Source: Dehalococcoidia bacterium
GTDB taxonomy: Bacteria > Chloroflexota > Dehalococcoidia > Bin125
Direction: 5' to 3'
Assembly: GCA_965116225.1 (NCBI GenBank)
Contig: OZ220495.1
Coordinates: 149,405 to 213,404, forward strand
Length of the DNA stretch: 64,000 bases
Position 1 is the stretch's first letter. Each line of letters starts with the position of its first letter. Position numbers and translations under genes: made by a program. Positions 2,698 through 30,802 of the stretch are shown here, piece by piece. The notes under the pieces were generated by a model. It worked only from the letters and a program-made list of their open reading frames with translations. It did not search any database and had not been told where the DNA came from.

Positions 2698-5178
2698 CTA
2701 GTTGCTGATGTAGAGGATGTCCGAGCGGCCGACCGTGAAATCGCTCGAACCCGGCACCATCGTCCCATCCACAACGGAATAGCGAACCCAGGCCGAGCCG
2801 TTCCACAGGTGGACGGCGCTGGCGCCGCGACCCGAGACCAGACCGAAGACCTCCGACGCCGTTGATTCGACATCGCAGGTCCAGGTGGCGAAGCCGCTCA
2901 AGGCGCTGAGACAGTCCAGACTCGCTTCCGCCGCCGGCGCCGCGGGCGCGCCGGCCGTGCTGATCAGCACCTCGACGTCGCGCGCCGGCGTCGAATCGTC
3001 CGAGACCGTGGCTCGCACCACCGCCCGACCGGCCCCGACCACCGTCAGCGTCGTCGTCGCCTTGCCGGCTACCGTCAGCGCCGACGTATCGTCCAGCACC
3101 GCCACCGCATCGTCGTCGCCGACCAGGTCCGACACCCCGAATGCGACCATGGTGCCGTCCGCCACCGCGTTGCCGCCGGCGTCTGTGACCATCACGCTCG
3201 CCGTCACGCCCTGACCAATCTCGGTCGCCGGCACCGGATCCAGCGTCAGATCGACCTCGTCCGCCGCGCCCACGACCATGAGCGTCGTCGACGCCTTCAG
3301 CGTCCCCGACGTCACCTCAAGTGTGTACGTCCCAGCCGCCAGCGCCGATGTGATCGCCGCGTCGATGTCCAGCATCAGACTGCTCATCATCGAACCCGAC
3401 TGCGTCGTCTCGTACTTGCTCTGCGCCACCAGCGCGCCGCCCGACGTCTTCAGCATCGCCGTCACGGTCGGTACCGTAACCGCCGAACCGGAGGCGTCCG
3501 TCGCGTCAAGCATGAACGAAATCTGGTCGCGCGCGTCCGTGCCGCTATCCGCCTTGGTCGCCGCGTTATAGTCGGCCGCCTGGTCGTTGCCGACGTTGTA
3601 GCCCAACACGTTGCTGGGCGCCGCGCCGATGCTCAGCGAGGTGGCCGGACCCGAGAACCGCACCTGGACCGGGTCGGGTCGATGCACCTGACCGCCCGAG
3701 ATCACGGTCGCCGTGACCGTCGCCGTACCCGGCGACGCCGGCGCCTTCAGCTCAATCCGCATCTTGGCCGGCAGTTGGTCGCCCGACGCCCGCAGACTGC
3801 TCAGGTCGAGCTCGCAGGCCGCCGAGTTCTGCGTCTTGCAGTTCGCCGCCTGAGCCGTCTCGGACCCCATCGCGCCGATGCTCTGCGTCGACAGCGTCCC
3901 GCCCGTGGTCGTGACCACAATCGACGAGACCGCGCTCGCCTCCGACGGCTGGTTGCTCCCGCTCAACACCGACAGCGACAGCTCGGTCGTCCCCGTGCCC
4001 GCCATAATCGTGGTCGGCTCGGCCGTGGTCGCGTCGTCGACGTAGCCGTCCTTGGGCGTCGTATCCGTATCGCCGGCCATCGCCTTGCGCGGCGAACTGG
4101 GGCCGAAACTCACCGTCCCCACCTGGTTCGCCGTCGGACTCACCGTCAGCACCTTCGTGACCGTAATCGGCGTCGTGTCCAGCGCGCCCCGCTGTCCCTT
4201 GACCGTCACCGGGTAATCGCCCGCCGGCGTACCCGACGGAACGACGATCTCAATCGAGATGACATTGGTACCGGTCGTGTCCGATACCGCTCCGGGCAGC
4301 ACATTATCGGCGGTGCACCCTTTGCCCACGTAGGCGTATCCATTACTGCCGCTGCTACTGTCCGAACTGGTGCTGCCGTAGTTAACGCGGAAGCAGGTTT
4401 CCGCAAGCGCCTGATAAATCCAGTAGGCAGTTGCAGCCCTGTACGGATATTCAGAGTTCCTGAAGTATGTCTGCGAATATCCGTCGATCAGCGCGCCCAA
4501 CGGAACCCGAAGCACCCGAATGTCGGGGTCGCTATCCTTGTCGTGGTCGGCCGTGGTGATGGACCGGCTGCGATCCCGATCCAGGTAGTCATCGGGAACG
4601 GACTCGGTGCGCACCATGTCGAAGTTCAGACCGGGAACCTCGGCGCTGTTCACCAGGGCCCCGTTCTTGCCCGTCACCTTGAGCTGCACGTTCGTCCCCG
4701 CCGGCACCACGCCGTCGGACTCGCCCACGAACACGACCTCGAGCGACGGTGTCGCCTCCGGCGTGGTCGAGGGCGCCTGGTCGGCCGCATACGTCGTCAC
4801 CGTGATCGTGTAGCGGTTCAGCGCGATCCCGTTGTCGGTCACGACGATCTCGTAGACCGCCGAACCGGTGTCGTCTTCGCTATCGGCGTCCCGATCCGAG
4901 GGGGTGAAGGTGACCACCCGGCCCGACACCGAGGGGCTGTCCGACGCCAGCGTCTTGGTCCCGCCGCTCTTCCAGACCGCGCTGACCGTGCCCGTGCCCG
5001 GAATCGTCCGCGTGCACGGTACCGCCGCCGGCGTGCCGCCCTCTCCCGCCTGGGTCACCGTGCAGGCGGGCAGCGTCGTCTGCGCCTCAGCCGGTTGCGA
5101 GACCGCCGCCAGCGCGAGCGCCAACGCGACGAGCGCTGCCCCCCCCCCAATAATTTGGTTGATTTGGTTGATGCGCAT
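2698..5178 (-). CDS. Secreted Big_1 (invasin/intimin-type Ig-like) repeat surface protein, paralogue A; in frame only from secondary ATG at 5178
   Basis: 827 aa from ATG 5178 (MRINQINQIIGGGAALVALALALAAVSQPAEA, signal peptide). C-terminal ~480 aa nearly identical to the paralogues at 6870 and 23306, with Big_1-like motifs (GVTASVMVTDAGGNAVADGTMVAF). The G10 tract at 5149-5158 encodes GGG. Confidence 0.75.
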   Translation of the reverse strand: MRINQINQIIGGGAALVALALALAAVSQPAEAQTTLPACTVTQAGEGGTPAAVPCTRTIPGTGTVSAVWKSGGTKTLASDSPSVSGRVVTFTPSDRDADSEDDTGSAVYEIVVTDNGIALNRYTITVTTYAADQAPSTTPEATPSLEVVFVGESDGVVPAGTNVQLKVTGKNGALVNSAEVPGLNFDMVRTESVPDDYLDRDRSRSITTADHDKDSDPDIRVLRVPLGALIDGYSQTYFRNSEYPYRAATAYWIYQALAETCFRVNYGSTSSDSSSGSNGYAYVGKGCTADNVLPGAVSDTTGTNVISIEIVVPSGTPAGDYPVTVKGQRGALDTTPITVTKVLTVSPTANQVGTVSFGPSSPRKAMAGDTDTTPKDGYVDDATTAEPTTIMAGTGTTELSLSVLSGSNQPSEASAVSSIVVTTTGGTLSTQSIGAMGSETAQAANCKTQNSAACELDLSSLRASGDQLPAKMRIELKAPASPGTATVTATVISGGQVHRPDPVQVRFSGPATSLSIGAAPSNVLGYNVGNDQAADYNAATKADSGTDARDQISFMLDATDASGSAVTVPTVTAMLKTSGGALVAQSKYETTQSGSMMSSLMLDIDAAITSALAAGTYTLEVTSGTLKASTTLMVVGAADEVDLTLDPVPATEIGQGVTASVMVTDAGGNAVADGTMVAFGVSDLVGDDDAVAVLDDTSALTVAGKATTTLTVVGAGRAVVRATVSDDSTPARDVEVLISTAGAPAAPAAEASLDCLSALSGFATWTCDVESTASEVFGLVSGRGASAVHLWNGSAWVRYSVVDGTMVPGSSDFTVGRSDILYISN
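5149..5158 (-). repeat. Homopolymeric G10 tract (C10 on plus) inside the signal-peptide coding region of paralogue A
   Basis: Counted directly. Homologous tracts are G12 (9272-9283) and G13 (25789-25801). Confidence 0.8.
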
Positions 5179-5472
5179 CGGCGCATGTTGGCGCGCATCC
5201 GCGCAAGTCTCTGAACCATCTCCAGCCCCTTTCCCGAGACCAGTCGCCGCCCCGTCCGCTCGGGGCGCTCTCCGCCCAAGTATCGCACAGGCAATACCGC
5301 GCAAGACCCCGTATTTCGGTTCTTTTCAAGAATTTACGCTCTGGTTACGATCATTCTGCCGATTTCCGCGGCCCGCCTCCGTCGTACTCGCGCTCTGCCC
5401 GGGCCACAAGAGAACGTCATGTCCGCGCCGGGCGCGGCATGACCGTAGGGGGGGCGCGCCCCTCACCCTTCA

Positions 5473-5850
5473 CTAACTCCGATGTACTCTTCGCGCCCGG
5501 CGGCACTCTAGCGTGAAGGCGTTTTCGTCAGACTCGTTGCGCGCCCACTCGCAATCCAACGGACCGAGCCATTCGAACTCGACCTCGACGGGCTCCGACC
5601 AGCGTTGGCACTGCGATGAGTAGGCGCTGACCCGTACGCCCAGCGTGGGCCAGTTCTGGATCGGCAGATTATCGATCGTCCGCGACAGATCCGCGTCCGC
5701 GGAACCAAATTCGACCGCGTCTGCAACATTCGCGGCCGTCCGTCTCGACCTGCGCGTCCCACTCGGCTCTGGCCTTGCGCAGGGCTGTAATGGCGGCTGA
5801 ATCAAGCATTGCCGACTCCCGCCCGATATCGCACGCTTTGGCTTTGCCAC
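5473..5850 (-). CDS. Hypothetical small protein (weak call)
   Basis: ORF has a W-rich, non-biased C-terminal half (NWPTLGVRVSAYSSQCQRWSEPVEVEFEWLGPLDCEW). Start uncertain. Confidence 0.25.
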   Translation of the reverse strand: MAKPKRAISGGSRQCLIQPPLQPCARPEPSGTRRSRRTAANVADAVEFGSADADLSRTIDNLPIQNWPTLGVRVSAYSSQCQRWSEPVEVEFEWLGPLDCEWARNESDENAFTLECRRARRVHRS

Positions 5851-5895: not shown

Positions 5896-6522
5896 CTAGC
5901 CGCCGTTGCCGTTGGCATCAGGGTTGGGGTCGGGATTGCCGTTGGGATTGGGGTTAGCGCCGGGATTGCCGTTGGCATCGGGGTTAGGGTCGGGATTGCC
6001 ATTGGCATCGGGGTTAGGGTCAGGATTGCCGTTGGCATCGGGGTTAGGGTCGGGATTGCCGTTGGGATTGGGGTTAGGGTCGGGATTGCCGTTGGCATCG
6101 GGGTTGGGGTCGGGATTGCCATTGGCATCGGGGTTGGGGTCGGGATTGCCATTGGCATCGGGGTTAGGGTCGGGATTGCCGTTGGCATCGGGGTTAGGGT
6201 CGGGATTGCCGTTGGGATTGGGGTTAGCGCCGGGATTGCCATTGGCATCGGGGTTAGCGCCGGGATTGCCGTTGGGATTGGGGTTAGCGCCGGGATTGCC
6301 ATTGGCATCGGGGTTAGCGTCCGGTGGCGTTGGCGTCGGGGTTGGCGGCGGCGGCGGCGGCGGGGCTGGTGGCGTCGGCGTCGGCGTCGGGGTCGAGGCT
6401 GAAGGCCTATCGCCACCGCTGCAGCCGTCTCGGGCGTCAACCGACTCAATGGCGGCGATGGCTCCGATGATCACGGCGATGCTCAGCGCTGCCGTCGCCG
6501 CTGCTATCCGTAGGCGTTCCAT
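5896..6522 (-). CDS. Membrane-anchored/secreted low-complexity protein with Pro/Thr linker and about 14 NP(D/N)ANG decapeptide repeats
   Basis: ATG at 6522 preceded by AAGGAG (spacing 6). Hydrophobic N-terminus (MERLRIAAATAALSIAVIIGAIAAI), then a PTPTPTPPAPPPPPPPTPTPTPP linker and a tandem (DANGNPDPNP)n array. The plus-strand alternative frame (GLGSGLPLAS)n has no signal or RBS. Confidence 0.55.
   Translation of the reverse strand: MERLRIAAATAALSIAVIIGAIAAIESVDARDGCSGGDRPSASTPTPTPTPPAPPPPPPPTPTPTPPDANPDANGNPGANPNPNGNPGANPDANGNPGANPNPNGNPDPNPDANGNPDPNPDANGNPDPNPDANGNPDPNPDANGNPDPNPNPNGNPDPNPDANGNPDPNPDANGNPDPNPDANGNPGANPNPNGNPDPNPDANGNGG
5935..6315. repeat. 30-bp tandem repeat array (about 12-13 units, variants gggattgccgttggcatcggggttagggtc)
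   Basis: Direct reading of the sequence. Units differ by single substitutions (agggtc vs agcgcc vs ggggtc). Confidence 0.85.
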
Positions 6523-6869: not shown

Positions 6870-9354
6870 TTAGTTGCTGATGTAGAGGATGTCCGAGCGG
6901 GAGACGGCGAAGTCGCTGGAGCCGGGCACCAAGGTTCCGCCGACGACCGAGTAGCGGATCCAGGCGGTACCGTTCCACAGGTGGACGGCGGTCGCGCCCC
7001 GACCGGAGACCAGACCGAAGACCTCGGAGGCCGTCGATGTGACGTCGCAGGTCCAGGCGGCGAAGCCGGTCCAGGCGCTCAGACAGTCCAGACCCACGGT
7101 CTCGGCCGCCGCCGCCGCGGGCGCGCCGGCCGTGCTGATCAGCACCTCGACGTCGCGCTCCGGCGTCGAGTCGTCCGAGACCGTCGCTCGCACGACCGCG
7201 CGACCGGCGCCCACGACCGTCAGCGTCGTCGAGGCTTTGCCGGCTACCGTCAACGCCGTCGTATCGTCCAGCACTGCCACCGCGTCGTCGTCGCCGACCA
7301 AGTCCGAGACGCCGAACGTGACCATCGTGCCGTCCGCCACCGCGTTGCCGTCGGCATCGGTGACCATCACGCTCGCCGTCACGCCCTGACCAATCTCGGT
7401 GGCCGGGACCGGATCGAGCGTCAAATCGACCTCGTCCGCCGCGCCCACGACCATGAGCGTCGTTGACGCCTTCAGCGTCCCCGACGTCACCTCCAGCGTG
7501 TACGTCCCCGCCGCCAGCGCCGATGTCATCGCCGCGTCGATGTCCAGCATCAGATTGTTCATCATCGAACCCGACTGGGTCGTCTCGTACTTGCTCTGCG
7601 CGACCAGCGCGCCGCCCGACGTCTTCAGCATCGCGCTCACGGTCGGCACCGTGACCGCGGAGCCGGAGGCGTCCGTCGCGTCGAGCATGAACGAAATCTG
7701 GTCGCGGGCGTCCATGCCCGCGTCCGCCTTGGTCGCCGCGTTGTAGTCGGCCGCCTCGTCGTTGCCGACGTTGTAGCCGAGCACGTGACTCGGCGCCGCG
7801 CCGATGCTCAGCGAGGTGGCCGGGCCGGAGAACCTGATTTGGACCGGGTCGGGTCGATGCACTGTGCCGCCCGAGATCACGGTCGCGGTGACCATCGCCG
7901 TACCCGGCGTCGCCGGCGCCTTGAGCTGAATGCGCATCTTGGCCGGCAGCGGATCGCCCGACGCCTTCAGGCTGGTCAGGTCGAGCTCGCAGGCAGCCTG
8001 ACCGCCGGTCTTACAGGTCGCCTTCTGGTCGACCAGGGCGCCGGCCGGGCCGATCTGCTCGGTCGACAGCGTGCCGCCCGTGGTCGTAATCACAATCGAC
8101 GAGACCGCGCTGGCCTCGGACGGCTGGTTGCTCGCGCTCAATACCGAGAGCGACAGCTCGGTCGTGCCCGTGCCGGCCATAATCGTGGTCGGCTCCGCCG
8201 TGGTCGCGTCGTCGATGTAGCCATCCTTGGGCGTCGTATCCGTATCGCCGGCCATCGCCTTGCGCGGCGAACTGGGGCCGAAGCTCACCGTCCCCACCTC
8301 GTTCGCTGTGGGGCTGACCGTCAGCGTCTTCGAGATGGGCGTCAGCGGCGTCGGGTCCTTCAGGCTGCGCTGACCGTACAGCGTGACGACGTAATCACCG
8401 GCAGGCGTGCCCCTGGGCACGACGAGCTCCAGCTCGTACTGGGAGGTATGGAGCGCGCCCGCCGTTTCGCCCTCGTTGCAATAGGATGGGGGGTTGGTAT
8501 TGATTGCCTTTTGGCAGCGACCCCGGAGCAGGAACTCGGCTAAGATGTACTGTAACTGCCCACTCCCGTATTTCGGATTGATTCTGCCAGTGAAGTGCGG
8601 CTCGGATGAGGTGTAGATGTCCGAACCGAGCGACGATGAGCGCGTGATCCGCACATCCATCTTGTCATCCACATCGTGATCCTTGTCGTCGACGGTTTCG
8701 TCCCCATTCCGATCCAGCGTGTCGTCGCCCCAGTAGGCGGTCCGCTTGCCGAAGAAAGTCAACCCTCCCGAAACGGTGATCCGCGTCGGCCATGCATCGT
8801 TCTTGGAGACGTACCTGACGATGACGTTCGTGCCCGCGGTGACGACGCCGTCGGACTCGCCCAGGAAGACGAGCTCGAGCGAGGGCGTCGTCGTCGTGGT
8901 CGCCGGCGCCTGGTCGGCCGCGTAGGTGGTCACCGTGATCGTGAAACGGGCCAGCACGATCCCGTTCTCGGTCGCGATGATCTCGTAGACCGCCGAACCG
9001 GTGTCGTCGTCGCTATCGGCGTCCCGATCCGAAGGCGTGAACGTCACCACCTTCCCCGACACCGAGGGGCTGTCCGCCGCCAGCGTGCTGTCCTTGCCGC
9101 TCTTCCAGACCGCGCTGATCGTGCCCGTGGCCGGAATCGTCCGCGTGCAGGGCACTGCCGCGGGGTCGTCGCCCTCTCCCGCCTGGGTCACCGTGCAGGC
9201 GGGCAGCGTCGTCTGCGCCTCAGCCGGCTGCGAGACCGCCGCCAGCGCTAGCGCCAACGCGACTAGCGCTGCCCCCCCCCCCCAATAATTTGGTTGACTT
9301 AGTTGATGCGCGTCGGCGCATGTTGACGCGCATCCGCGCCAGGCTCTTGACCAT
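6870..9354 (-). CDS. Big_1 repeat surface protein, paralogue B; out of frame at the G12 tract in this sequence
   Basis: SD-linked start ATG 9354 (gggaagagagg-N5-ATG, MVKSLARMRVNMRRRASTKSTKLLGGGG). The conserved signal core and mature protein (AALVALALALAAVSQPAEAQTTLPACTVTQ...) are in another frame and are only in frame if the tract is G11 or G14. The stop-to-stop ORF is 6870..9404. Confidence 0.65.
9272..9283 (-). repeat. Homopolymeric G12 tract in the signal-peptide region of paralogue B
   Basis: Counted directly (9 C + 3 C on the plus strand). Confidence 0.8.
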
Positions 9355-9445
9355 CTCGGCCTCTCTTCCCGGTATTCAGTCGCCGCCTCGTCCGTCGGAG
9401 GCATTGTTGCCTATTATCGCACAGCCGAACCGCGATATCGCCGTG

Positions 9446-9454
9446 CCCCCCCCC
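9446..9454 (-). repeat. Second homopolymeric tract (G9) in the conserved 5' promoter-like region of paralogue B
   Basis: Lies between an A/T-rich block (TAAATTTTTTTAC) and a putative extended -10 (TGCGATAAT at about 9408-9416, minus strand). Confidence 0.6.
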
Positions 9455-18118: not shown

Positions 18119-19246
18119 ATGTCCGAGCGACGCACGGGATGGATCTATCACGAGTCCTACATGTGGCACGACACGGGCAGAACGCAGGCGTTCGACCCCG
18201 AGTTGCGACGATGGATGCAGGCCTGGGAGCATTGGGAGAATCCCGATACCAAGCGGCGGCTGAACAATCTGCTGGAAGTATCGGAGTTCTCGGAGCAGCT
18301 GACGCGGCTCAAGCCGCGCCCGGCGCATGCGGAGCAGCTGCTGCGCTTTCATACGCCGGACTACGTCGATCGCATCCGGGCGCTGTCGGCGGTCGACGGC
18401 GGCGACGCCGGCGAGGGCGCCCCGTTCGCGCACGGCGGCTACGAGATCGCGCTGCTCTCGGCGGGAGGGACGATCACGGCGGTCGACGCGGTGCTCGACG
18501 GCGCGGTCGACAACGCCTATGCGTTGACCCGTCCGCCCGGTCACCACGCCGAACGCGACCGCGGTCGCGGCTTCTGCATCTTCGGCAATGTCGCCATCGC
18601 CGCCATGCATGCGCTGGCGGAGCGCGGCATCGACCGGGTGGCGACGCTGGACTGGGATGTCCATCACGGCAACGGCACGCAGCAGGCATTTTACGAGCGA
18701 CGCGACGCGCTGACGATGTCGATCCACCAGGACCAATGGTATCCGCGCGATAGCGGCGGAATGGACGAGCGGGGCGCAGGCGAGGGCGAGGGCTACAACA
18801 TCAATATTCCGCTGCCGCCCGGCAGCGGGCACGGCGCATATGTCGAGACCGTGCGCCAGGTCGTGGTTCCGGCGCTCCAGGCGTTTCGGCCCGACCTGAT
18901 CCTGCTGCCGTCGGGCTTCGACGGCAGCATGTACGATCCGCTGGGTCGGATGATGGCCTATTCCGAGACCTTCCGCGAGATGACCCGCCTGCTGATGGAA
19001 GCGGCAGACGAACTCTGCGACGGTCGGCTCGTGCTCAGTCACGAAGGCGGCTACAGTCCCACCTACGTGCCGTTCTGCGGACTTGCCGTGGTCGAGGAGC
19101 TGAGCGGGAAGCGCTCGATTGCCGGCGATCCGTTCGAGGACAACTCGGCGACGGCGGGCGGTCAGGAGCTGCAACCGCACCAGCAGGCGGTCTTGGACGA
19201 GGCGAAGCCGCTCGTGGATCGCCTGATACAGCTTGAGGGCGTATAG
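18119..19246 (+). CDS. Histone deacetylase-family amidohydrolase (acetoin utilisation / acetylpolyamine amidohydrolase-like)
   Basis: HDAC-superfamily motifs (RPPGHHAERDRGRGFCIFGNVAIA, DWDVHHGNGTQQAFYERRDALTMSIH). Confidence 0.8.
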   Translation: MSERRTGWIYHESYMWHDTGRTQAFDPELRRWMQAWEHWENPDTKRRLNNLLEVSEFSEQLTRLKPRPAHAEQLLRFHTPDYVDRIRALSAVDGGDAGEGAPFAHGGYEIALLSAGGTITAVDAVLDGAVDNAYALTRPPGHHAERDRGRGFCIFGNVAIAAMHALAERGIDRVATLDWDVHHGNGTQQAFYERRDALTMSIHQDQWYPRDSGGMDERGAGEGEGYNINIPLPPGSGHGAYVETVRQVVVPALQAFRPDLILLPSGFDGSMYDPLGRMMAYSETFREMTRLLMEAADELCDGRLVLSHEGGYSPTYVPFCGLAVVEELSGKRSIAGDPFEDNSATAGGQELQPHQQAVLDEAKPLVDRLIQLEGV

Positions 19247-19265
19247 GGACGTCGCGTCGCGCGGC

Positions 19266-19590
19266 TCAGAGCCGACTGAAGATTGCCGTCATCATCCCGA
19301 ACATGCCCGCGAACCCCAGACCGATCGCCCGGGTCATCAGGGTGAGACGCTTCTGCAATTCCCCGAATCGCTGATCCATCTCGCGCTACAACGAATCCCG
19401 CATCTCGGCGCGGACCTACGCCAGGCCGTCCTGCAACTCCTGTCGCGCGCCGTCTGCGAAATCACCCGGGTCAGACCGAGCTCGAACGCTTGCCGATCGA
19501 CGCCTGATCCATCCCCGCCTCGACCAGCCCCTCCTCAAGATCGTCCGACTATGCCTCAATCGCCGGCTCGCGCATCGTCTCAGTCGTCAT
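19266..19590 (-). pseudogene. Decayed copy 1 of a small DUF1640-like coiled-coil/TM gene
   Basis: Homologous to 22680-23145, but has an in-frame TAG after MTTETMREPAIEA and lacks the coiled-coil expansion. Confidence 0.5.
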
Positions 19591-19779
19591 GCCCTTGCCT
19601 CCGCTTTCTGCATACCGCATCCCCATCTCCTCTGCGGAACGCCGCGAACGAGGCGGAGGCGGAGTTGTGCGACTCCATCCCTCGGGCTGGCCGCCGTCCT
19701 CGTCGGCGCCATGCTATCGGGGCAGCGTGAGGTCGGTTGCGGTCCTTGCGCTGGCGCCCCGCCAGGCGCGGGTTGCATT

Positions 19780-20400
19780 GGTCAGTGCCCGATTGGGTTC
19801 CCGACGATCGTTGCGATGGTTGCGTTGCTGGCGCGAGTGGTGGCTGTCGCTGAGGGGCCATTCGGGGTTCTTGGCGATCGTTGCGAAGATTGAGGCGGCG
19901 TCAGGTGCGTCTCTGGCGGTGGTTGCGGTGGTTGGCATGCCGATCCGAGGGCGATGTTGGCGTTGATGGCATCGGTCGCCATCGGTTCGATCATTCGTGC
20001 GGCGGATATGGCGACAATTGTGGTGGTTGCGGTTGGCTTCCTGATGTCGGTTGCTCAGCTGACGCGGGTCGCGATTGCGTTCCCAAGGTTAGTTGCGATA
20101 GTTAATATCGCTCGTTCGAGAGCGGCGTTGGCGTTAATGGCATCGATCGCCATCGGTTCGATGATCCGCGTGGGAGATATGGCGACGGGTGCGTTCCTGG
20201 CGTGAGTTGCGTTGGCTGGGAGTGATAGCAGTTATCGGGTTGGATGCGATGGTCGGCTCGGCGGCGCTTGTGCGCCTGGCGACGACGGGAGCGATTGAGT
20301 TGCGGTTGGGTTCCCGGCGATCGTTGAGTTGCCGATGCCGGTTGCGCGCCCGGCTGCGGTTACGTTGATTGCGTTGGAATGCGGATCGACGTTATAGCTC
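19780..20400. repeat. Degenerate tandem repeats (period about 170 bp, GTTGCG/GATGGC-rich); probably a decayed coding repeat related to the big paralogues
   Basis: ggcgttgatggcatcggtcgccatcggttcgat... recurs at 19957 and 20127. A related segment at 22430-22620 flanks a paralogue C-terminal fragment. Confidence 0.5.
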
Positions 20401-20436
20401 CCTCGTTGGCTTTCTGGCGATGGTTGGGGCGTTGCG

Positions 20437-20476
20437 GCGCTCGCGGGGGCGGGCCGACCGCGCGTCGGCCCGCCCC
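20437..20476 (-). terminator. Perfect 17-bp GC hairpin downstream of the FN3 gene
   Basis: cgcgggggcgggccgac cgcgcg gtcggcccgcccccgcg. Confidence 0.5.
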
Positions 20477-20489
20477 CGCGATCAGCGGT

Positions 20490-21659
20490 CTACTTGCTCC
20501 ACCAGCCGTAGTGGCGGCTCTTCGACCATTGTCCGCATTGGTCGGAGTAGGCCTCCACCTGCACGCGCAGATAATGACCGGTGCCAGTCGGCAGACCGGT
20601 CACTGTCTTCGACAGCGTCGCAGCGGCGGAGCGGAAGTACTCGTCCGCGTAATCCACGTCGGTATACGCGTCGAGGTAGACGTAGTAGTTGTACTCGATC
20701 ATTTGCGCCGCGTACTTGGTCGCCTGGTTGCCGCCGGCGCTGACGTAGGCGCAGCGCTTGTCGCGCTTGCCACCGATGGCTCGCGGCTTCTGCCAGCTGA
20801 TCGTCACCTCACCCGACGTGCTCGTATCGACGCTCAGGTCGCGCACCGGAAACGGCGCGCGCAACTTCCGCGTCGCCGGCGCAGACGGATTCGTGTTCGA
20901 CGCCGACGTCCAGAAAAACGCCGTCGCCAACTCCGATTCCTCCCCGCAACCGTCCTCCGACTCCGCGTACACCTCCACGTAATGCCGGTACGGATAGTTC
21001 AACTCGTCCACGTACCAACTCGTACCGCTATCGATGCGCAGCGACTCGGCCACCATCGGCATCGTCGGCGCCACCTCGTACACGCGCACGAAGTAGCCGG
21101 CCGTGGGACAATAGCCGCCGTCGCCGTGGCCGCCGCTCGTCCAGGAAATCAGGGCGCTATCGTAGCCCGCCTGCACCGTCAACCCGGTCGGCGTACTGGG
21201 CAACGTTCCAGCCGCGCCGTACGGCTTGGCGCTGACCGTATCCGAGGCCGGGCCGATCCCGCCTGAGTTCTTGGCCCGCAGCTCGAAGCTGTAGCTCACC
21301 CCGCTGCCGTCCAGCGACCTGACCCGGTAGAAATCCGTCCAGCTGCCGCCGGCCGCAGTCCAGCTCCCCCAGGCGCCACTGCCCTTGCGCTGCCGATATT
21401 CGTAATTGTCGATGGCCCGAACCTCCGCCATCGACGGATGATTCCACTTCAGCGTGACCGATCGCGGCCCCGCAGTGGCGAACAACCCCTCCGGCTTGGT
21501 CAGCGTCACGCTCTGCCCGAGCGCCGACTCCGAGCCGAACGCGACCAGCCCGACCAGCAATCCGGCCATCGCCAGCAGACCCCAACGAGTCAGGAACCGA
21601 GACCTGTGATCAGCACGCAATATGCGAAGAGGGGCGTTGAGCCCTGGTGGGTAAGACAT
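20490..21659 (-). CDS. Secreted fibronectin type III domain protein
   Basis: ATG 21659 (MSYPPGLN...RWGLLAMAGLLVGLVAFGSESALGQS, signal peptide). FN3-like motifs (SVTLKWNHP, YEYRQRKGSGAWGSW, YSFELRAKN). Confidence 0.7.
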   Translation of the reverse strand: MSYPPGLNAPLRILRADHRSRFLTRWGLLAMAGLLVGLVAFGSESALGQSVTLTKPEGLFATAGPRSVTLKWNHPSMAEVRAIDNYEYRQRKGSGAWGSWTAAGGSWTDFYRVRSLDGSGVSYSFELRAKNSGGIGPASDTVSAKPYGAAGTLPSTPTGLTVQAGYDSALISWTSGGHGDGGYCPTAGYFVRVYEVAPTMPMVAESLRIDSGTSWYVDELNYPYRHYVEVYAESEDGCGEESELATAFFWTSASNTNPSAPATRKLRAPFPVRDLSVDTSTSGEVTISWQKPRAIGGKRDKRCAYVSAGGNQATKYAAQMIEYNYYVYLDAYTDVDYADEYFRSAAATLSKTVTGLPTGTGHYLRVQVEAYSDQCGQWSKSRHYGWWSK

Positions 21660-21894
21660 CCGAACATCTCCTGTGCATCTCCAACGATGCCAGCGCCCAA
21701 CCCGAGCGCCCGGCGATAGCGGCACATTAGCCACGACGCCCGCAGCCGATCAAACGCGCCAAGCGATATTCGGTAACCTTCGCCCGAATCGAGTTAAGCG
21801 GAACAAGCTTATCGTCGACCAAATTCGTTATGCTCGCGCCCGGCGCGAGCGCGGCGACGCACCGAGCAGGTGGAACGTCGGCGAGCAGCGCGGT

Positions 21895-22143
21895 TCAGAG
21901 AGCCGATTCAGCATCACGCTGAGCATCGCGCTCATTAAGCCAAACATACCCGCGAACCTGTGCCAAGCCGTCCTGCAATTCCCAGCGGGTCGCCGTCTGC
22001 GAGATCACCCGCGTCAGACCCAGCTCGAGCGCCTGCCGGTAGGCCCGCGCCGACGCCTGATCCATCCCCGTCTCGACCAACCCTTCCTCCAGATCGTCCG
22101 ACCATGACTCAATCACCGGGTCGCGCACTGTCTCAGTTGTCAT
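21895..22143 (-). pseudogene. Copy 2 of the DUF1640-like small gene; TM segment lost by frameshift/deletion
   Basis: MTTETVRDPVIESWSDDLEEGLVETGMDQASARAYRQALELGLTRVISQTATRWELQDGLAQVRG, then out of frame relative to copy 3. Fused directly to the paralogue fragment upstream. Confidence 0.45.
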
Positions 22144-22199
22144 GCCGTCGCCTCCGTCGTCGGCATACCGCATCCCCTGAGCGGCGGCGCTGCGCTGGC

Positions 22200-22500
22200 G
22201 ACGCGAGACCAGACCGAACATCTCCGACGCCGTCGATTCGACATCGCAAGTCCAGGTGGCGAAACCGGTCAAGGCGCTCAGGCAGTCCAGACTCGCCTCG
22301 GCCGGCGTCGCCGACCCGGCCCGCCCGCCGTGCTGATCAGCACCTCGACGTCGCGCTCCGGCGTCGAATCGCCCGACACCGTCGCCCGCACCACCGACCG
22401 ACCGTCGCCGACCACGGTCAGCGCAGCGAAGATTGAGTCGGCGTCGGGCGCGGCGCTGGCGGTCGTTGCGAAGGTTGGGTTGCTAGCGCGAGGGCAGCGT
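22200..22500 (-). pseudogene. Fragment of a fourth Big_1 paralogue (C-terminal region only, frameshifted)
   Basis: Encodes VVRATVSGDSTPERDVEVLISTAG and LDCLSALTGFATWTCDVESTASEMFGLVS in two different frames. Lacks the last ~60 codons and the terminator. Confidence 0.55.
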
Positions 22501-22679
22501 TGGCGACGGTGGCGTCTGTCGAGTAGGCGGCGCCTGGAGTTATGCGATGTCAGTTGCTCAAGTCGCATAGGTTGCGATTGCGTTCCTTGCGGCGGCGTGA
22601 TGCCGACGCCCTACACGGGAATCACGGACCGGCCAAGGACGAGGAAAAGGCCAGCAAGCGAAGTGGCGGCCCGCAGGGC

Positions 22680-23145
22680 TCAGAGCCGAACGAGGAGCGC
22701 GGTCATAAACCCGAACACGCCCACGAACCCCAGACCCACCGTCCAGGTCAACAGATTGAGCCGCTTCTGCATCTCCCCGAAGCGCTGATCCATCTCCCGC
22801 TGCAACTGATCCCGTATCTCCCGCATCTCAGCGCGCAACTGGTCGCCCATTTCCTTCATCTCAGCGCGCAGCTGTTCCCGCATCTCCCCCATCTCCCGAC
22901 GCAGGTCGCCCATCTCCCCGCGAACTTGCGCCAAGCCCTCATGTAGCTCTTGCCGACCCTGCGCCAAGCCGTCCTGCAGCTCCTGCCGCGTTGCTGTCTG
23001 CGAGATCACCCGCGTCAGACCCAGATCGAACGCCTGCCGATAGGCGTGCGCCGATGCCTCATCCATCCCCACCTCGACCAGCCCCCTCCTCCAGATCGTC
23101 CGACCATGCCTCAATCACCGGGTCGCGCACTGTCTCAGTCGTCAT
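22680..23145 (-). CDS. DUF1640-like small coiled-coil protein with C-terminal TM, copy 3 (frameshift at a G5 run near the 5' end)
   Basis: From ATG 23145 the frame breaks after EEG (gaggagggggctggtc; copy 2 has one fewer G). Downstream frame gives MDEASAHAYRQAFDLGLTRVISQTATRQELQDGLAQ...LRAEMKEMGDQLRAEMREIRDQLQREMDQRFGEMQKRLNLLTWTVGLGFVGVFGFMTALLVRL. Confidence 0.5.
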
Positions 23146-23249
23146 GCCGTCGCCTCCGTCGTCGGCATACCGCATCCCCTAGGCGGGGCTCGGTCAGGCC
23201 CGCGCGGGGGTGCGGCATGACCGTAGGGCTAGCGCGCCGTTAACTACAA

Positions 23250-23281
23250 GTGGGGCGGGGCCTTGCGACCCCACCCCACTC
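23250..23281 (-). terminator. Conserved hairpin downstream of paralogue C
   Basis: agtggggcgggg ccttgcga ccccaccccact. Confidence 0.45.
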
Positions 23282-23305
23282 GGGCTGTTCGCCGTTCCTT
23301 GGCGG

Positions 23306-25845
23306 CTAGTTGCTGATGTAGAGGATGTCCGAGCGGCCGACGGCGAAGTCGCTGGAGCCGGGCACCATCGTCCCATCGACCACCGAGTAGCGGACCCAGG
23401 CGGAGCCGTTCCACAGGTGGACGGCGCTGGCGCCCCGACCCGAGACCAGGCCGAACACCTCCGACGCCGTCGATTCGACATCGCAGGTCCAGGTGGCGAA
23501 GCCGCTCAAAGCGCTGAGACAGTCCAGGCTCACCGCCTGGGCCGGCGCCTCGGGCGCGCCCGCCGTGCTGATCAGCACCTCGACGTCGCGCGCCGGCGTC
23601 GAGTCGTCCGAGACCGTGGCGCGCACCACCGCGCGACCGGCCCCGACCACGGTCAGCGTCGTCGAGGCTTTGCCGGCTACCGTCAGCGCCGACGTATCGT
23701 CCAGCACCGCCACCGCATCGTCGTCGCCGACCAGGTCCGACACCCCGAACGCCACCATGGTGCCGTCCGCCACCGCGTTGCCGTCGGCATCGACGACCAT
23801 CACGCTCGCGGCGACGCCCTGACCGATCTCGGTCGCCGGCACCGGCTCCAGCGTCAGATCGACGCTGTCCGCCGCCCCCACGACTATGAGCGTGGTTGAC
23901 GCCTTCAGCGTCCCCGACGTCACCTCCAGCGTGTACGTCCCCGCCGCCAGCGCCGATGTGATCGCCGCGTCGATGTCCAGCATCAGACTGCTCATCATCG
24001 AACCCGACTGCGTCGTCTCGTACTTGCTCTGCGCCACCAGCGCGCCGCCCGACGTCTTCAGCATCGCGCTCACGGTCGGTACCGTAACCGCCGAACCGGA
24101 GGCGTCCGTCGCGTCAAGCATGAACGAAATCTGGTCGCGCGCGTCCGTGCCGCTATCCGCCTTGGTCGCCGCGTTGTAGTCGGCCGCCTCGTCGTTGCCG
24201 ACGTTGTAGCCCAACACATTGCTGGGCGCCGCGCCGATGCTCAGCGAGGTGGCCGGACCCGAGAACCTGATCTGGACCGGGTCGGGTCGATGCACCGTGC
24301 CGCCCGAGATCACGGTTGCGGTCACCGTCGCCGTACCCGGCGACGCCGGCGCCTTGAGCTGAATCCGCATCTTGGCCGGCAATGGATCGCCCGAGGCCCG
24401 CAGACTGGTCAGGTCGAGCTCGCAGGCCGCCTGGCCGTTGCTCTTGCACTTTGCCTTCTGGTCGACCAGGGCGCCGGCCGGGCCGATCTGCTCGGTCGAC
24501 AGCGTCCCGCCCGTGGTCGTGATCACAATCGACGAGACCGCGCTCGCCTCCGACGGCTGGTTGCTCCCGCTCAACACCGACAGCGACAATTCCGTCGTGC
24601 CCGTGCCCGCCATAATCGTGGACGGCTCCGTTGTCGACGCGTCATCGATGTAGCCGTCCTTGGGCGTCGTATCCGTATCGCCCGCCACCGCCTTGCGCGG
24701 CGAACTGGGGCCGAAACTCACCGCCCCCACCTGGTTCGCCGTCGGACTCACCGTCAGCACCTTCGTGACCGTAATCGGCGTCGCGTCAACCGCGCCCCGC
24801 TGTCCCTTGACCGTCACCGGGTAATCGCCCGCCGGCGTCCCCGACGGAACGACGATCTCAATCGAGATGACGTTGGTGCCGATGGTCTTGTTGGCGCCCC
24901 CTACCTGTCCGGGGAGCGGATTGTCGCTGTCGGCGCCCGAGCACCCCGCGCCCAGGTAACTGCCGTCGCTCGAACTGCTCGTACTGATGTACTCGACTAC
25001 GCCGCCAACAGTCCTTGAGCCGCCGTAGTTATAGCGGAAGCAGGTTGCCTCAAGCGCCTGATAAATCCAGTAGCTGGCGCCCGACCTGTATGGGAATTCC
25101 TGATTGGAGACTTCGATCTTTGACCCATCCCTCGACTCGATGTACGGACCTAACGCAACCCGAGCCACGCGCACATCGGGGTCGCTATCCGCGTCATGGT
25201 CGGCGGTGGTCCAGGAGCGGCTGAGGTCTCGATCCAGATAGTCATCGGGAACGTACTCGGTGCGCAGGAAGTCGAAGTGCAGACCGGAAGCCGCGATGCT
25301 GTTCACCTGGGCGCCGTTCTTGCGGGTCACCTTGAGCTGCACGTTCGTGCCCGCCGGCACCACGCCGTCGGACTCGCCTACGAACACGATCTCCAGCGAG
25401 GGGGTCGTCTCCGGTGTGGTCGAGGGCGCCTGGTCGGCCGCGTAGGTGGTCACCGTGATCGTGTAGCGGTTCAGCGCGATCCCGTTGTCGGTCACGACGA
25501 TCTCGTAGACCGCCGAACCGGTGTCGTCGTCGCCGGTCACCCGGTCCGACGGCGTGAAGGTCACCACCCGACCCGACACCGAGGGGCTGTCCGACGCCAG
25601 CGTCTTGGTCCCGCCGCTCTTCCAGACCGCGCTGACCGTGCCCGTGCCCGGAATCGTCCGCGTGCAGGGCACTGCTACCGGCGTGCCGCCATCCCCAGCC
25701 TGGGTCACCGTGCAGGCCGGCAGCGTCGTCTGCGCCTCAGCCGGCTGCGAGACCGCCGCCAGCGCAAGCGCCAACGCGACGAGCGCTGCCCCCCCCCCCC
25801 CAATAATTTGACGCGCATGCGCGCAACGATGTGAGTCATCTTCAT
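23306..25845 (-). CDS. Big_1 repeat surface protein, paralogue C; out of frame at the G13 tract
   Basis: SD-linked start (aaagggag ATG AAG ATG at 25845/25839; MKMTHIVARMRVKLLGGGG) is in frame with the mature protein only if the tract is G11 or G14. The stop-to-stop ORF is 23306..26116. Confidence 0.65.
25789..25801 (-). repeat. Homopolymeric G13 tract in the signal-peptide region of paralogue C
   Basis: Counted directly (2+10+1 C on the plus strand). Confidence 0.8.
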
Positions 25846-25931
25846 CTCCCTTTCGCAGGATCCGTCTCCGCCCCGAACGGCCGAGGCGCACTTGGCAAGT
25901 ATCGCACGGCGTCGCATGTCGTATCGCCGTA

Positions 25932-25943
25932 CCCCCCCCCCCC
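25932..25943 (-). repeat. Second homopolymeric tract (G12) in the conserved 5' region of paralogue C
   Basis: Same position as the G9 tract of paralogue B, next to AAATTTTTTGAC and upstream of TGCGATACT. Confidence 0.6.
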
Positions 25944-26102
25944 GTCAAAAAATTTACCCGTGATTTACAATCAACGAACCCGTAACCCGTCGATTGACGT
26001 GATCCATCTCCGTCATGCCCGGCTGGCCCGGGGCTCTCGCTTGCAAGGCGGGGAACAAGACGCCCGCGCCCGGCGCGGGCATGCATGACAGGAGGCGGCG
26101 TT

Positions 26103-26942
26103 TCAGATCTCAGCATGCGCGCCGCGATGGCGCATGCGGGCGACGAAGACGGGCGGAATGTCGGGGAGATGAGCCCAGCTGAGGCGCATGGTCGGCTCGT
26201 CGGCGTCGCCCTCGCCGCCGTCGCTGATCGACGGTTCGCGGATGCCGTCGAGCACCCAGCCGCGGTCGAAGGCGGCGCTGAACAGCTCGGTCAGGGTTCG
26301 ATGGAAGTACGGCTGGAGGCTGGGTTGACCGACCGCGGCGATGCCGCGCTGCGCGCCCGTGTTCCGATAGCCGCTGATGCGCACGCCTGTTTCTTGGATC
26401 AGTTCGCCGTCCGGCGTCTCCATGCGCTCGGCGAACAGGCGCACGTCGGGTCCTGGATTGAAGGCGGGATGCAGGATCGAGAAGACGAACGGCGCGTTGT
26501 CGGCGAGGACGAGCGGGAGCATGTCGAACAGCGGCGTGATCTCGGCGATATCCATGAGCGCCATGTTGCAGACGACCGCGCCGAACGGCGCGCCGGCGGC
26601 GCCCGCCAGCGCGGCCAGGGCGGAACGATCAGTGGCGTCCAGGCGCATCCAGCGGATTTTGACGCCCGTGGAGCGCTGATCGGCTCGGTCGAGTTGCGCC
26701 TTCGAGCCGTCGGTCGCGGTCACCGCAACGCCGTGACCGGCGAGCTGTCGAGCGAAGGCGCCGTTGCCGCAGGCGATCTCCAATACCCTGTTCGGCAGCG
26801 GCTGGAGCAGCTCCAGGCTGGCGGGGAAGACCAGCGTTCGCTGCCAGTAGTTGCCCTCGTCGCCCTGGACCTGGTCCCAGAATTCAGCGTTCTGCTCCCA
26901 CGCCTCCAGCGATTCGTCGTTGTGTTCGGGATAGTCGATCAT
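26103..26942 (-). CDS. Class I SAM-dependent methyltransferase
   Basis: VLEIACGNGAFARQLAGHGVAVTATDGS (motif I). Start ATG 26942 (MIDYPEHND). Confidence 0.75.
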   Translation of the reverse strand: MIDYPEHNDESLEAWEQNAEFWDQVQGDEGNYWQRTLVFPASLELLQPLPNRVLEIACGNGAFARQLAGHGVAVTATDGSKAQLDRADQRSTGVKIRWMRLDATDRSALAALAGAAGAPFGAVVCNMALMDIAEITPLFDMLPLVLADNAPFVFSILHPAFNPGPDVRLFAERMETPDGELIQETGVRISGYRNTGAQRGIAAVGQPSLQPYFHRTLTELFSAAFDRGWVLDGIREPSISDGGEGDADEPTMRLSWAHLPDIPPVFVARMRHRGAHAEI

Positions 26943-27028
26943 GGCGAACCGCGCTCGTTGATACCGTAAGCGCAAAACCAGACCGTAATGAGGCCGCGCC
27001 GCGGGCTGCGGCGGCTGCTCGCCTCGGC

Positions 27029-29915: not shown

Positions 29916-29927
29916 CCCCCCCCCCCC
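29916..29927 (+). repeat. C12 homopolymer immediately upstream of TATATT, 37 nt before the DinB-like start
   Basis: tcgagCCCCCCCCCCCCatatattcaacc...ATG(29965). Confidence 0.7.
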
Positions 29928-29964
29928 CATATATTCAACCGACATCCCCGACCTGGACTCCGCG

Positions 29965-30607: not shown

Positions 30608-30795
30608 CTCAGCCTTACTTCCATCGAACCCTGACCGAACTCCTCAGCGACGCCGTCAACCGCGGGTGGGTGGTTCGACGGCACCCGCGAACCGTCGAAC
30701 ACAGACGGCGGTGAGGGCGATGCCGACAATCGCCATCGGCCGGGCCCACTTCCTCGACACACCACCAGTCCTCGGCACCTACCTCCGCCATCGCG
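30608..30795 (+). pseudogene. Frameshifted remnant of the C-terminus of a SAM-methyltransferase paralogue (homologous to the 26103-26290 gene end)
   Basis: PYFHRTLTEL...GGEGDAD... matches PYFHRTLTELFSAAFDRGWVLDGIREPSISDGGEGDADEP. No upstream gene body is present. Confidence 0.55.
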
Positions 30796-30802
30796 GCTGA
30801 CC

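Follow-up and report, generated by a model that had tools for sequence, protein, structure and literature searches.

Gene debris beside a large adhesin family in a Dehalococcoidia genome: probable decay of a tandem two-gene cassette array

How does a region of about 4 kb come to hold, beside an intact surface protein gene, three damaged copies of one small gene, a piece of another surface protein gene and two blocks of degenerate repeats? The question is raised by positions 19250–23300 of a 64-kb stretch of high-GC DNA (~66% GC), here called the window, from the 2,601,622-bp contig OZ220495.1 of a Dehalococcoidia bacterium. All elements of this debris are on the minus strand, 3′ of an intact adhesin paralogue, paralogue C. 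The region appears to be the decaying tail of a tandem array of two-gene cassettes, that is, the outcome of ordinary birth-and-death decay in a surface-protein family; the probability of this reading is put at roughly 0.7. The elements had been listed in an earlier sequence-only reading of the same DNA, and they are found on the minus strand at or near the positions where it had placed them. Similarities among the elements within the window have E-values of 1e-10 to 1e-83, far above chance. DNA comparisons cover the window and 12 related loci from other Dehalococcoidia metagenome-assembled genomes (MAGs), which also hold the closest relatives of the window genes; family counts for the source genome are from the protein records of the source contig. 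Set against the intact members of their families, small-gene copies 1–3 and the adhesin fragment all display the lesions of pseudogenes.

Small-gene copy 3 (23145..22680, minus) is full length and shows the head, the ATRQE β-layer motif, the hendecad coiled coil and the C-terminal transmembrane (TM) segment of the family. Its lesion is a +1 frameshift after codon 20, where GGGG has become GGGGG at 23086–23082; otherwise copy 3 is collinear with intact members. A tblastn search with two intact paralogues, P0004 and P0008, gives two collinear high-scoring segment pairs (HSPs) in adjacent frames, in agreement with the frameshift in a G5 run that had been noted from the letters. The 144-aa open reading frame of copy 3 is not among the annotated proteins of the source genome. 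Among the window copies only copy 3, if repaired, would encode a coiled-coil stalk together with a C-terminal TM.

Copy 2 (22143..21895, minus) has 64 good N-terminal codons followed by an out-of-frame junction. The junction lies between GTTCGCGGG and GTTCGTGGG and is marked by short GTTCGYGGG direct repeats. Copy 3 has the same repeats, one (caGGTTCGCGGG) where its coiled coil starts and one (ggGGTTCGTGGG) within the TM segment. An internal deletion of ~225 bp, of the microhomology type, explains copy 2. The TM-coding end (about 21958–21919) is kept in another frame, with FAGMFGLMSAML at 21956..21921; thus the statement that copy 2 had lost its TM is inexact. Upstream of copy 2 is a small-gene leader of 40 nt (22144..22184, minus; GGGGATGCGGTATGCCGACGACGGAGGCGACGGC), which carries a GGAGG ribosome-binding site (RBS) and is conserved in the aligned upstream regions of the three copies.

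Copy 1 (19590..19266, minus) is heavily decayed, and tblastn gives three HSPs in three frames. The in-frame TAG that had been seen in this copy is present, W14 having changed to TAG at 19551–19549, but it is not the sole lesion. There are at least six, among them frameshifts after codons 31 and 51 and two changes of CAG to TAG; in addition, a W ahead of the TM has become R, and the coiled coil is shorter than in intact members. The DNA identity of copy 1 to copies 2 and 3 is 81–83%. Copies 1 and 2 are altered at residues that are invariant in the family (D8E, W14 to stop, F39L).

The adhesin fragment (22445..22186, minus; ~240 bp) is truncated at both ends and frameshifted. A hidden Markov model (HMM) of 820 positions, built from 19 adhesin paralogues and searched against the six-frame translation, matches the fragment at model positions 697–782 in two frames (59 and 46 bits), and this is the only adhesin-HMM match in the 4-kb region. 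DNA alignment with the three intact paralogues of the window, A, B and C, shows the frameshift to consist of 2 extra nt in a variable linker. The fragment ends inside the conserved 80-aa C-terminal domain that closes the adhesin paralogues and covers positions 3–42 of the 80. At its 3′ end, at ~22192–22185, it is joined directly to the leader of copy 2 with no spacer, and an open reading frame at 22272..21895 spans both. Relative to the unit formed by paralogue C and copy 3, ~230 bp are missing at the fusion (the adhesin 3′ end, the terminator hairpin and the spacer). The HMM and the DNA alignment thus bear out the description of a frameshifted C-terminal piece of a fourth adhesin fused without spacer to copy 2.

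The fragment is 82–86% identical to A, B and C (up to 88% in one comparison) and is more diverged from them than the intact genes are from each other (86–92%). Its private substitutions fall on the three codon positions as 7/6/7, compared with 5/9/25 among A, B and C, a small sample. None of the 19 paralogues is identical to the fragment, the best match being 57 of 63 residues. The even spread over codon positions, the greater divergence, the lack of an exact paralogue match and differences that are not specific to adenine together argue for a drifting pseudogene that evolves neutrally, rather than a maintained donor cassette or the template of a diversity-generating retroelement.

Material from an adhesin 3′ end precedes each of the three small-gene copies. 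Intact paralogue C precedes copy 3, the ~240-bp fragment precedes copy 2, and a 43-nt remnant of an adhesin 3′ flank (19668..19707, minus), the first half of the terminator, is found upstream of copy 1. The 43-nt remnant aligns to 23306..23263 with a score of 36, a score reached by 0 of 500 dinucleotide shuffles (shuffle maximum 28). In 7 of the 12 related MAG loci, one to three small genes are found 2–5 kb upstream of a large adhesin on the same strand, and in these seven loci it is the 80-aa domain with which the large protein closes (HMM E from 1e-13 down to 1e-41). In the other MAGs the small gene is single or forms tandem sets of two or three. Thus the unit that was duplicated consists of an adhesin and a small gene and is a real two-gene cassette. 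The order "small gene then adhesin" is equivalent to "adhesin then small gene" in a tandem array. By its distribution over these loci the pairing is older than the source genome, and the synteny suggests that the small protein and the adhesin may be functionally linked. The view that an adhesin and small-gene unit had been duplicated and had then decayed is upheld by the adhesin 3′ material before three of three copies, the neutral fragment, the intact members elsewhere and the synteny, the comparison of related genomes being one of the checks proposed earlier. The graded decay of the cassettes also agrees with a record of turnover in the surface-protein family.

Two further observations concern the DNA between the paired genes. 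A 46-nt spacer piece before copy 3 (23193–23238) recurs upstream of adhesin A (5416–5460) with 82.6% identity and is followed there by an RBS-like remnant, GACGGAGGCG, but no small gene is present; this hints at what is possibly a fourth, fully deleted small-gene copy. In four of the related loci, from distant MAG species, DNA conservation extends to a leader of ~300 nt that separates the small gene from the adhesin (L002 5540–5833, L003 5675–6000, L008 5421–5734 and L009 6415–6707). It displays a TTACG-N4-CGTAA palindrome, GATGATCACnACGTGGAAA and CCATGyGyGGGCGGGGCC, belongs to no Rfam family, shows weak covariation (n = 4 sequences) and is absent from the window.

The history of the array may be sketched as follows. 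Three cassette units can be recognised. One gene of the cassette encodes a small tail-anchored protein with an A-T-R/K-x-E motif and a stalk of 11-residue repeats of variable length, and the other a secreted surface protein of ~800 aa with Ig-like domains and the conserved 80-aa end domain. Unit 3 would have kept its adhesin (paralogue C) and acquired a single frameshift in its small gene. Unit 2 would have undergone three deletions, in whatever order, with loss of ~700 adhesin codons, of the adhesin 3′ end with the terminator, and of the small-gene coiled coil; at least one of the three took place between short direct repeats. Unit 1 would be reduced to the remnant of a terminator and a small gene with many mutations. 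The remnants would be by-products of turnover in a large family, of which the source genome has at least 17 adhesin paralogues and nine intact small genes. Tandem units, graded decay, deletions at short repeats and neutral substitutions in remnants are also features of birth-and-death surface-protein families, and there is no essential difference from these; the one thing added here is that genes were duplicated together as a conserved pair.

A promoterless partial copy near full-length paralogues is also what is found in silent-cassette systems such as Borrelia vls, Neisseria pilS and Anaplasma msp2, and the remnants could be an archive of this kind, the fragment and perhaps the blocks donating sequence to expressed paralogues by gene conversion. 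The large paralogous family, the lack of a promoter and 5′ end in the fragment, and the poly-G tracts that already equip the family for variation are in keeping with this. However, silent-cassette systems are recognised by multiple in-frame cassettes of a variable region with tracts common to the expression site, and here there is a single, frameshifted fragment with no sign of conversion tracts. It comes from the conserved C-terminal part and not from the variable N-terminal half, and the neutral pattern, the divergence and the protein comparison described above count against a donor role as well, so that an archive is highly improbable. Two other sources of variation were rejected. For a diversity-generating retroelement, where differences confined to the adenines of one copy would be expected, the 20 fragment-specific differences involve all four bases and A in only 2–3 cases, a rejection based on the substitution spectrum and not on a reverse-transcriptase scan of every open reading frame in the window; for site-specific inversion or a shufflon, there are no meaningful inverted repeats and no recombinase among the neighbouring open reading frames scanned around the debris. 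An assembly or sequencing artefact, with mis-joined paralogous repeats and homopolymer errors, has the slimmest chance. In its favour are a source that is evidently a complete contig of the MAG type, relatives that are MAGs too, and a copy 3 whose sole lesion is one homopolymer base. But the copies differ by 11–19% from one another and from the intact paralogues and are therefore not collapsed or chimeric identical repeats; copy 1 bears six or more independent lesions, the deletion junctions are clean and show microhomology, and the G5 run of copy 3 is the only plausible error.

The repeat blocks raise the question of origin separately. Block 1 (~20420..19760, minus) consists of ~3.5 degenerate units of 153–171 nt, and block 2 (~22620..22424, minus), which abuts the adhesin fragment, of one unit. 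Self-alignment of block 1 shows offsets of 153–171 nt and multiples of these (62% over 359 nt, E = 2e-19). The units are ~60% identical, the best pair reaches 84% at a spacing of 171 nt, and the block is too degenerate for Tandem Repeats Finder. Block 2 is homologous to 20084..19883 of block 1 (nhmmer E = 3e-10; 76% over 96 nt), and the mutual homology and the degenerate units of ~170 bp agree with what had been described. Each block comes after the preceding gene and right before adhesin 3′ remnants, in the place of an adhesin's upstream spacer or 5′ body. This position, where adhesin bodies are expected, and a minus-strand frame of block 1 that is open for ~230 codons with only three stops favour the proposal of the sequence-only reading that the blocks are decayed adhesin coding repeats. 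The similarity expected of such repeats is not seen, however. The adhesin protein HMM does not match the blocks even at E = 10. An nhmmer DNA profile of adhesin 3′ ends, run over the whole window, finds the fragment and nothing in block 1 at E = 50. Smith-Waterman scores of the blocks with adhesin C, the FN3 gene, a large FN3/Calx-beta gene and an NPDANG-repeat gene are within the range of dinucleotide shuffles. A lack of similarity between blocks and paralogues was one of two outcomes that the earlier reading had named as telling against itself. Conceptual translations of the blocks yield nothing in Pfam or the PDB, and the most open frame of block 1 gives 0 matches in a HMMER search of 1.84 billion protein representatives. 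Mismatches between block units by codon position are 11/15/17 with no third-position excess, and both blocks have an in-frame TGA at a matching position. An origin from adhesin coding sequence is thus distinctly improbable. In tblastx the blocks give only low-complexity noise; an apparent link to the NPDANG-repeat gene is part of it and does not hold in Smith-Waterman comparison with shuffles (z = −0.2 and 1.1).

The blocks could instead be a functional noncoding element of the cassette, for example a leader rich in C and A, a regulatory RNA or a hotspot of recombination. The gene strand of block 1 is asymmetric (C 40%, T 11%), and a 29-nt motif, GGGAACSCAAYCG..., occurs six times and within the window is confined to the blocks. 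In one related locus, L002, a direct repeat of ~120 bp (4806–4925 and 5418–5535; A 0.30, C 0.45–0.49) flanks the small gene; the repeat is extremely C/A-rich, and this suggests that the gene was inserted or duplicated within a C/A-rich leader. On the other side, the units are poorly conserved, RNA folding of block 1 is not significant on either strand (z = −0.77 and −0.74), and the blocks have no Rfam match. The blocks are found neither upstream of intact A, B or C nor in the 12 related loci, and an exact-pattern scan of Joint Genome Institute (JGI) metagenome contigs with the block core gives no match. A derivation from the conserved adhesin leader of the distant relatives was considered and dropped, there being no match or other detectable relation. 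A functional element is quite improbable. Most likely the blocks are noncoding DNA and not adhesin sequence: a spacer or leader that was duplicated with the units and, on the simplest view, belonged to a lost adhesin subtype and was joined by deletions to what is left.

Some points weigh against the reading of the region as a decayed cassette array. For the blocks, "spacer DNA" is a default reading. The extra G of copy 3 could be an assembly or base-calling error, and copy 3 would then be intact. Copy 2 keeps its RBS, and its 82-aa head-only product is annotated (P0076) and might be expressed. Directly upstream of the three intact adhesins of the window there is no small gene, so that the two genes need not be paired.

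The intact members show what the small gene encodes. The source contig has nine intact paralogues of 129–257 aa. Their layout is a head of ~50 aa, a β-layer motif, a variable count of 11-residue repeats and a C-terminal hydrophobic helix, the hydrophobic C-terminus being present in all intact members. An alignment of 19 members shows a very conserved head (MTTETxxDPxIEAWSDxLEExLVEAGM...AYRxAFELGLTRVISQTATRQELQDGL). At the β-layer position A51, T52 and E55 are found in every member, residue 53 is either R or K, and the residue before the motif is T, not an aliphatic one. An AlphaFold monomer model displays a short helical hairpin and then a single long helix (residues 29–135); Foldseek with this model gives no significant match. 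In PHROGs the only match is by coiled coil, to a family with no known function, and a scan of JGI metagenome contigs for the small gene finds nothing.

The earlier label "DUF1640-like" agrees with the layout and the β-layer motif, but not with a formal Pfam assignment. Nine of the 19 members match PF07798 (CCDC90-like/DUF1640) with E-values of 0.01 or less, the lowest being 9.3e-7; the gathering threshold of 33.5 bits is not reached by repaired copy 3 (16.5 bits, E = 0.008) or by intact P0004 (19.2 bits). By its architecture the small protein fits a DUF1640-like assignment short of formal membership. Like the PF07798 proteins (MCUR1, CCDC90B and prokaryotic homologues) it is small, with a head at the N-terminus, a stalk of coiled coil and a TM anchor at the C-terminus. 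It differs from them in a stalk made of a variable number of 11-residue repeats, which resemble apolipoprotein repeats, and in a head sequence specific to the Dehalococcoidia group. A PDB chain, 6h9l_A ("Uncharacterized protein"), which we take to be a prokaryotic DUF1640 homologue, matches at E = 0.31. To our knowledge, no function is known for DUF1640-type proteins of prokaryotes. The β-layer consensus [aliphatic]-A-T-K-[polar]-[DE] is found "prominently at the beginning of the C-terminal stalk" of DUF1640 proteins (Hartmann et al., PMC4786415), and the stalk of the small protein begins with A-T-R/K-x-E, which fits this consensus except for the Thr in place of the aliphatic residue.

The small protein had been proposed as a membrane partner of the adhesins. 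The synteny in seven of 12 loci is in favour of this, but the predicted tail-anchored topology is not. The protein has a C-terminal anchor and no signal peptide, which by prediction places the head and stalk, most of its length, in the cytoplasm and makes a direct partnership with the adhesin outside the cell doubtful.

The adhesin paralogues A (5304..2698), B (9404..6870) and C (26116..23306), all minus strand, are intact and ~800 aa long; C is a 100% match to annotated P0053. None has a Pfam match above threshold. An AlphaFold model of C shows a chain of Ig-like beta-sandwich domains and a small C-terminal domain, and Foldseek matches of the model are to PrgB Ig-like domains, macroglobulin domains and S-layer proteins. 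The predicted Ig-like array and these matches make "surface protein/adhesin" a reasonable label for A, B and C. Directly after the stop codon of C is a G+C-rich hairpin (GTGGGGTGGGG ... CCCCGCCCCAC; 23250..23279, minus). It is terminator-like with no T run, and a homologous sequence follows paralogue A at 2623–2686; the hairpin is absent from a consensus terminator scan because the scan demands a T tail. Between B and A is an intact gene (5896–6522, minus) whose product has a hydrophobic segment at the N-terminus, a linker of Pro and Thr, and tandem NPDANGNP(D/G)(P/A)NP repeats that are almost perfect (DNA period 30/60 bp); it has no Pfam match.

Each of the three adhesins carries a poly-G tract within its signal-peptide codons: G10 in A (5139–5148), G12 in B (9272–9283) and G13 in C (25789–25801). 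The G13 tract puts the canonical start of C (MKMTHIVARMRVKLLGGGG, 25845) out of frame, and in none of the three is the canonical family start (M..LARMRV..KLLGGG-AALVAL...) in frame. Further tracts are present in promoter-like upstream regions (G9 at 9446–9454 and G12 at 25932–25943), and an orphan G13 tract is found at 29916–29928. In the annotation of the source genome 5 of 17 adhesin paralogues start 3′ of the tract and others read through in frame. Relatives also have tracts, namely G14 in the closest relative (L001 5679–5692), G9 in L004 (5915–5923) and G17 in L007 (5480–5496); the G14 and G9 tracts are at places equivalent to those in the window. A homopolymer of at least 8 bases in the 5′ coding region or promoter, the mark of a contingency gene, is thus found in the neighbouring adhesins and not in the remnants. 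The pattern looks like phase variation and may be the signature of slipped-strand mispairing. Pseudogene debris is common beside poly-G phase-variable surface-protein families. In comparison with the poly-G contingency loci of Neisseria, Campylobacter and Bordetella (PMC2831843, PMC1891110), the tracts here, G10–G13 in the signal-peptide region and G9–G12 in promoter-like regions, are alike, and so is the setting of the adhesin frame relative to the canonical start by tract length. The differences are that the host is an uncultured high-GC Dehalococcoidia member and that the present finding concerns debris and not a switch.

Other features of the surroundings are as follows. An FN3-domain gene (21659..20490, minus) is found between copy 2 and block 1, as had been described; it is intact and annotated in the source genome and encodes a secreted 389-aa protein (Pfam fn3 E = 2.5e-12). 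A strong hairpin follows it at 20480–20442. A 96% identical paralogue (P0075) is present elsewhere on the source contig; thus the FN3 part of the locus lies in a segment that was duplicated recently. FN3-adhesin fusions in the relatives have an N-terminus similar to its signal peptide and first FN3 domain. The region is bordered by ordinary genes, a histone-deacetylase-family gene (18119–19246, plus) on one side and a methyltransferase gene (26975..26103, minus) on the other. An Rfam search over the region, at the gathering cut-off and at E ≤ 5, shows nothing credible. A 196-bp inverted repeat with 77.6% identity joins 26121–26315, at the start of the methyltransferase gene and upstream of adhesin C, to 30610–30797. 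The latter arm adjoins a low-GC stretch at 31–33 kb (GC 0.49–0.57), which holds a 541-aa open reading frame with no Pfam match. A c-di-AMP riboswitch (Rfam RF00379, 82.5 bits) at 1274–1451 of the closest relative's locus is unrelated to the cassette.

The region itself is ordinary gene debris, properly annotated as pseudogenes, and its decay is of less interest than the poly-G tracts of the intact adhesins. It is also evidence that, in an uncultured Dehalococcoidia lineage, members of a very large family of surface proteins are gained by duplication and lost again at a fast rate. In full-text searches of the literature no description was found of phase variation or homopolymeric tracts in Dehalococcoidia, and nothing relevant on surface proteins of sponge-symbiont Chloroflexi. 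Neither the conserved pairing of a DUF1640-like protein with an adhesin across several MAG species nor poly-G tracts inside adhesin signal-peptide codons, a hallmark of phase variation, was found described. A wider interpretation, tentative and rather doubtful as a whole, is that the DUF1640-like protein and the Ig-like surface protein would form a functional two-gene display module of this clade, present in ~17 copies in the 2.6-Mb genome, with the adhesin switched by poly-G slippage; the debris would then be a fossil record of rapid cassette turnover, and the C/A-rich blocks would mark breakpoints of recombination or deletion. The gene pair, the family of at least 17 members and the putative poly-G switches are a system worth a separate look. 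If confirmed, it would extend contingency-locus biology to the Chloroflexota and would give prokaryotic DUF1640-type proteins a testable genomic context.

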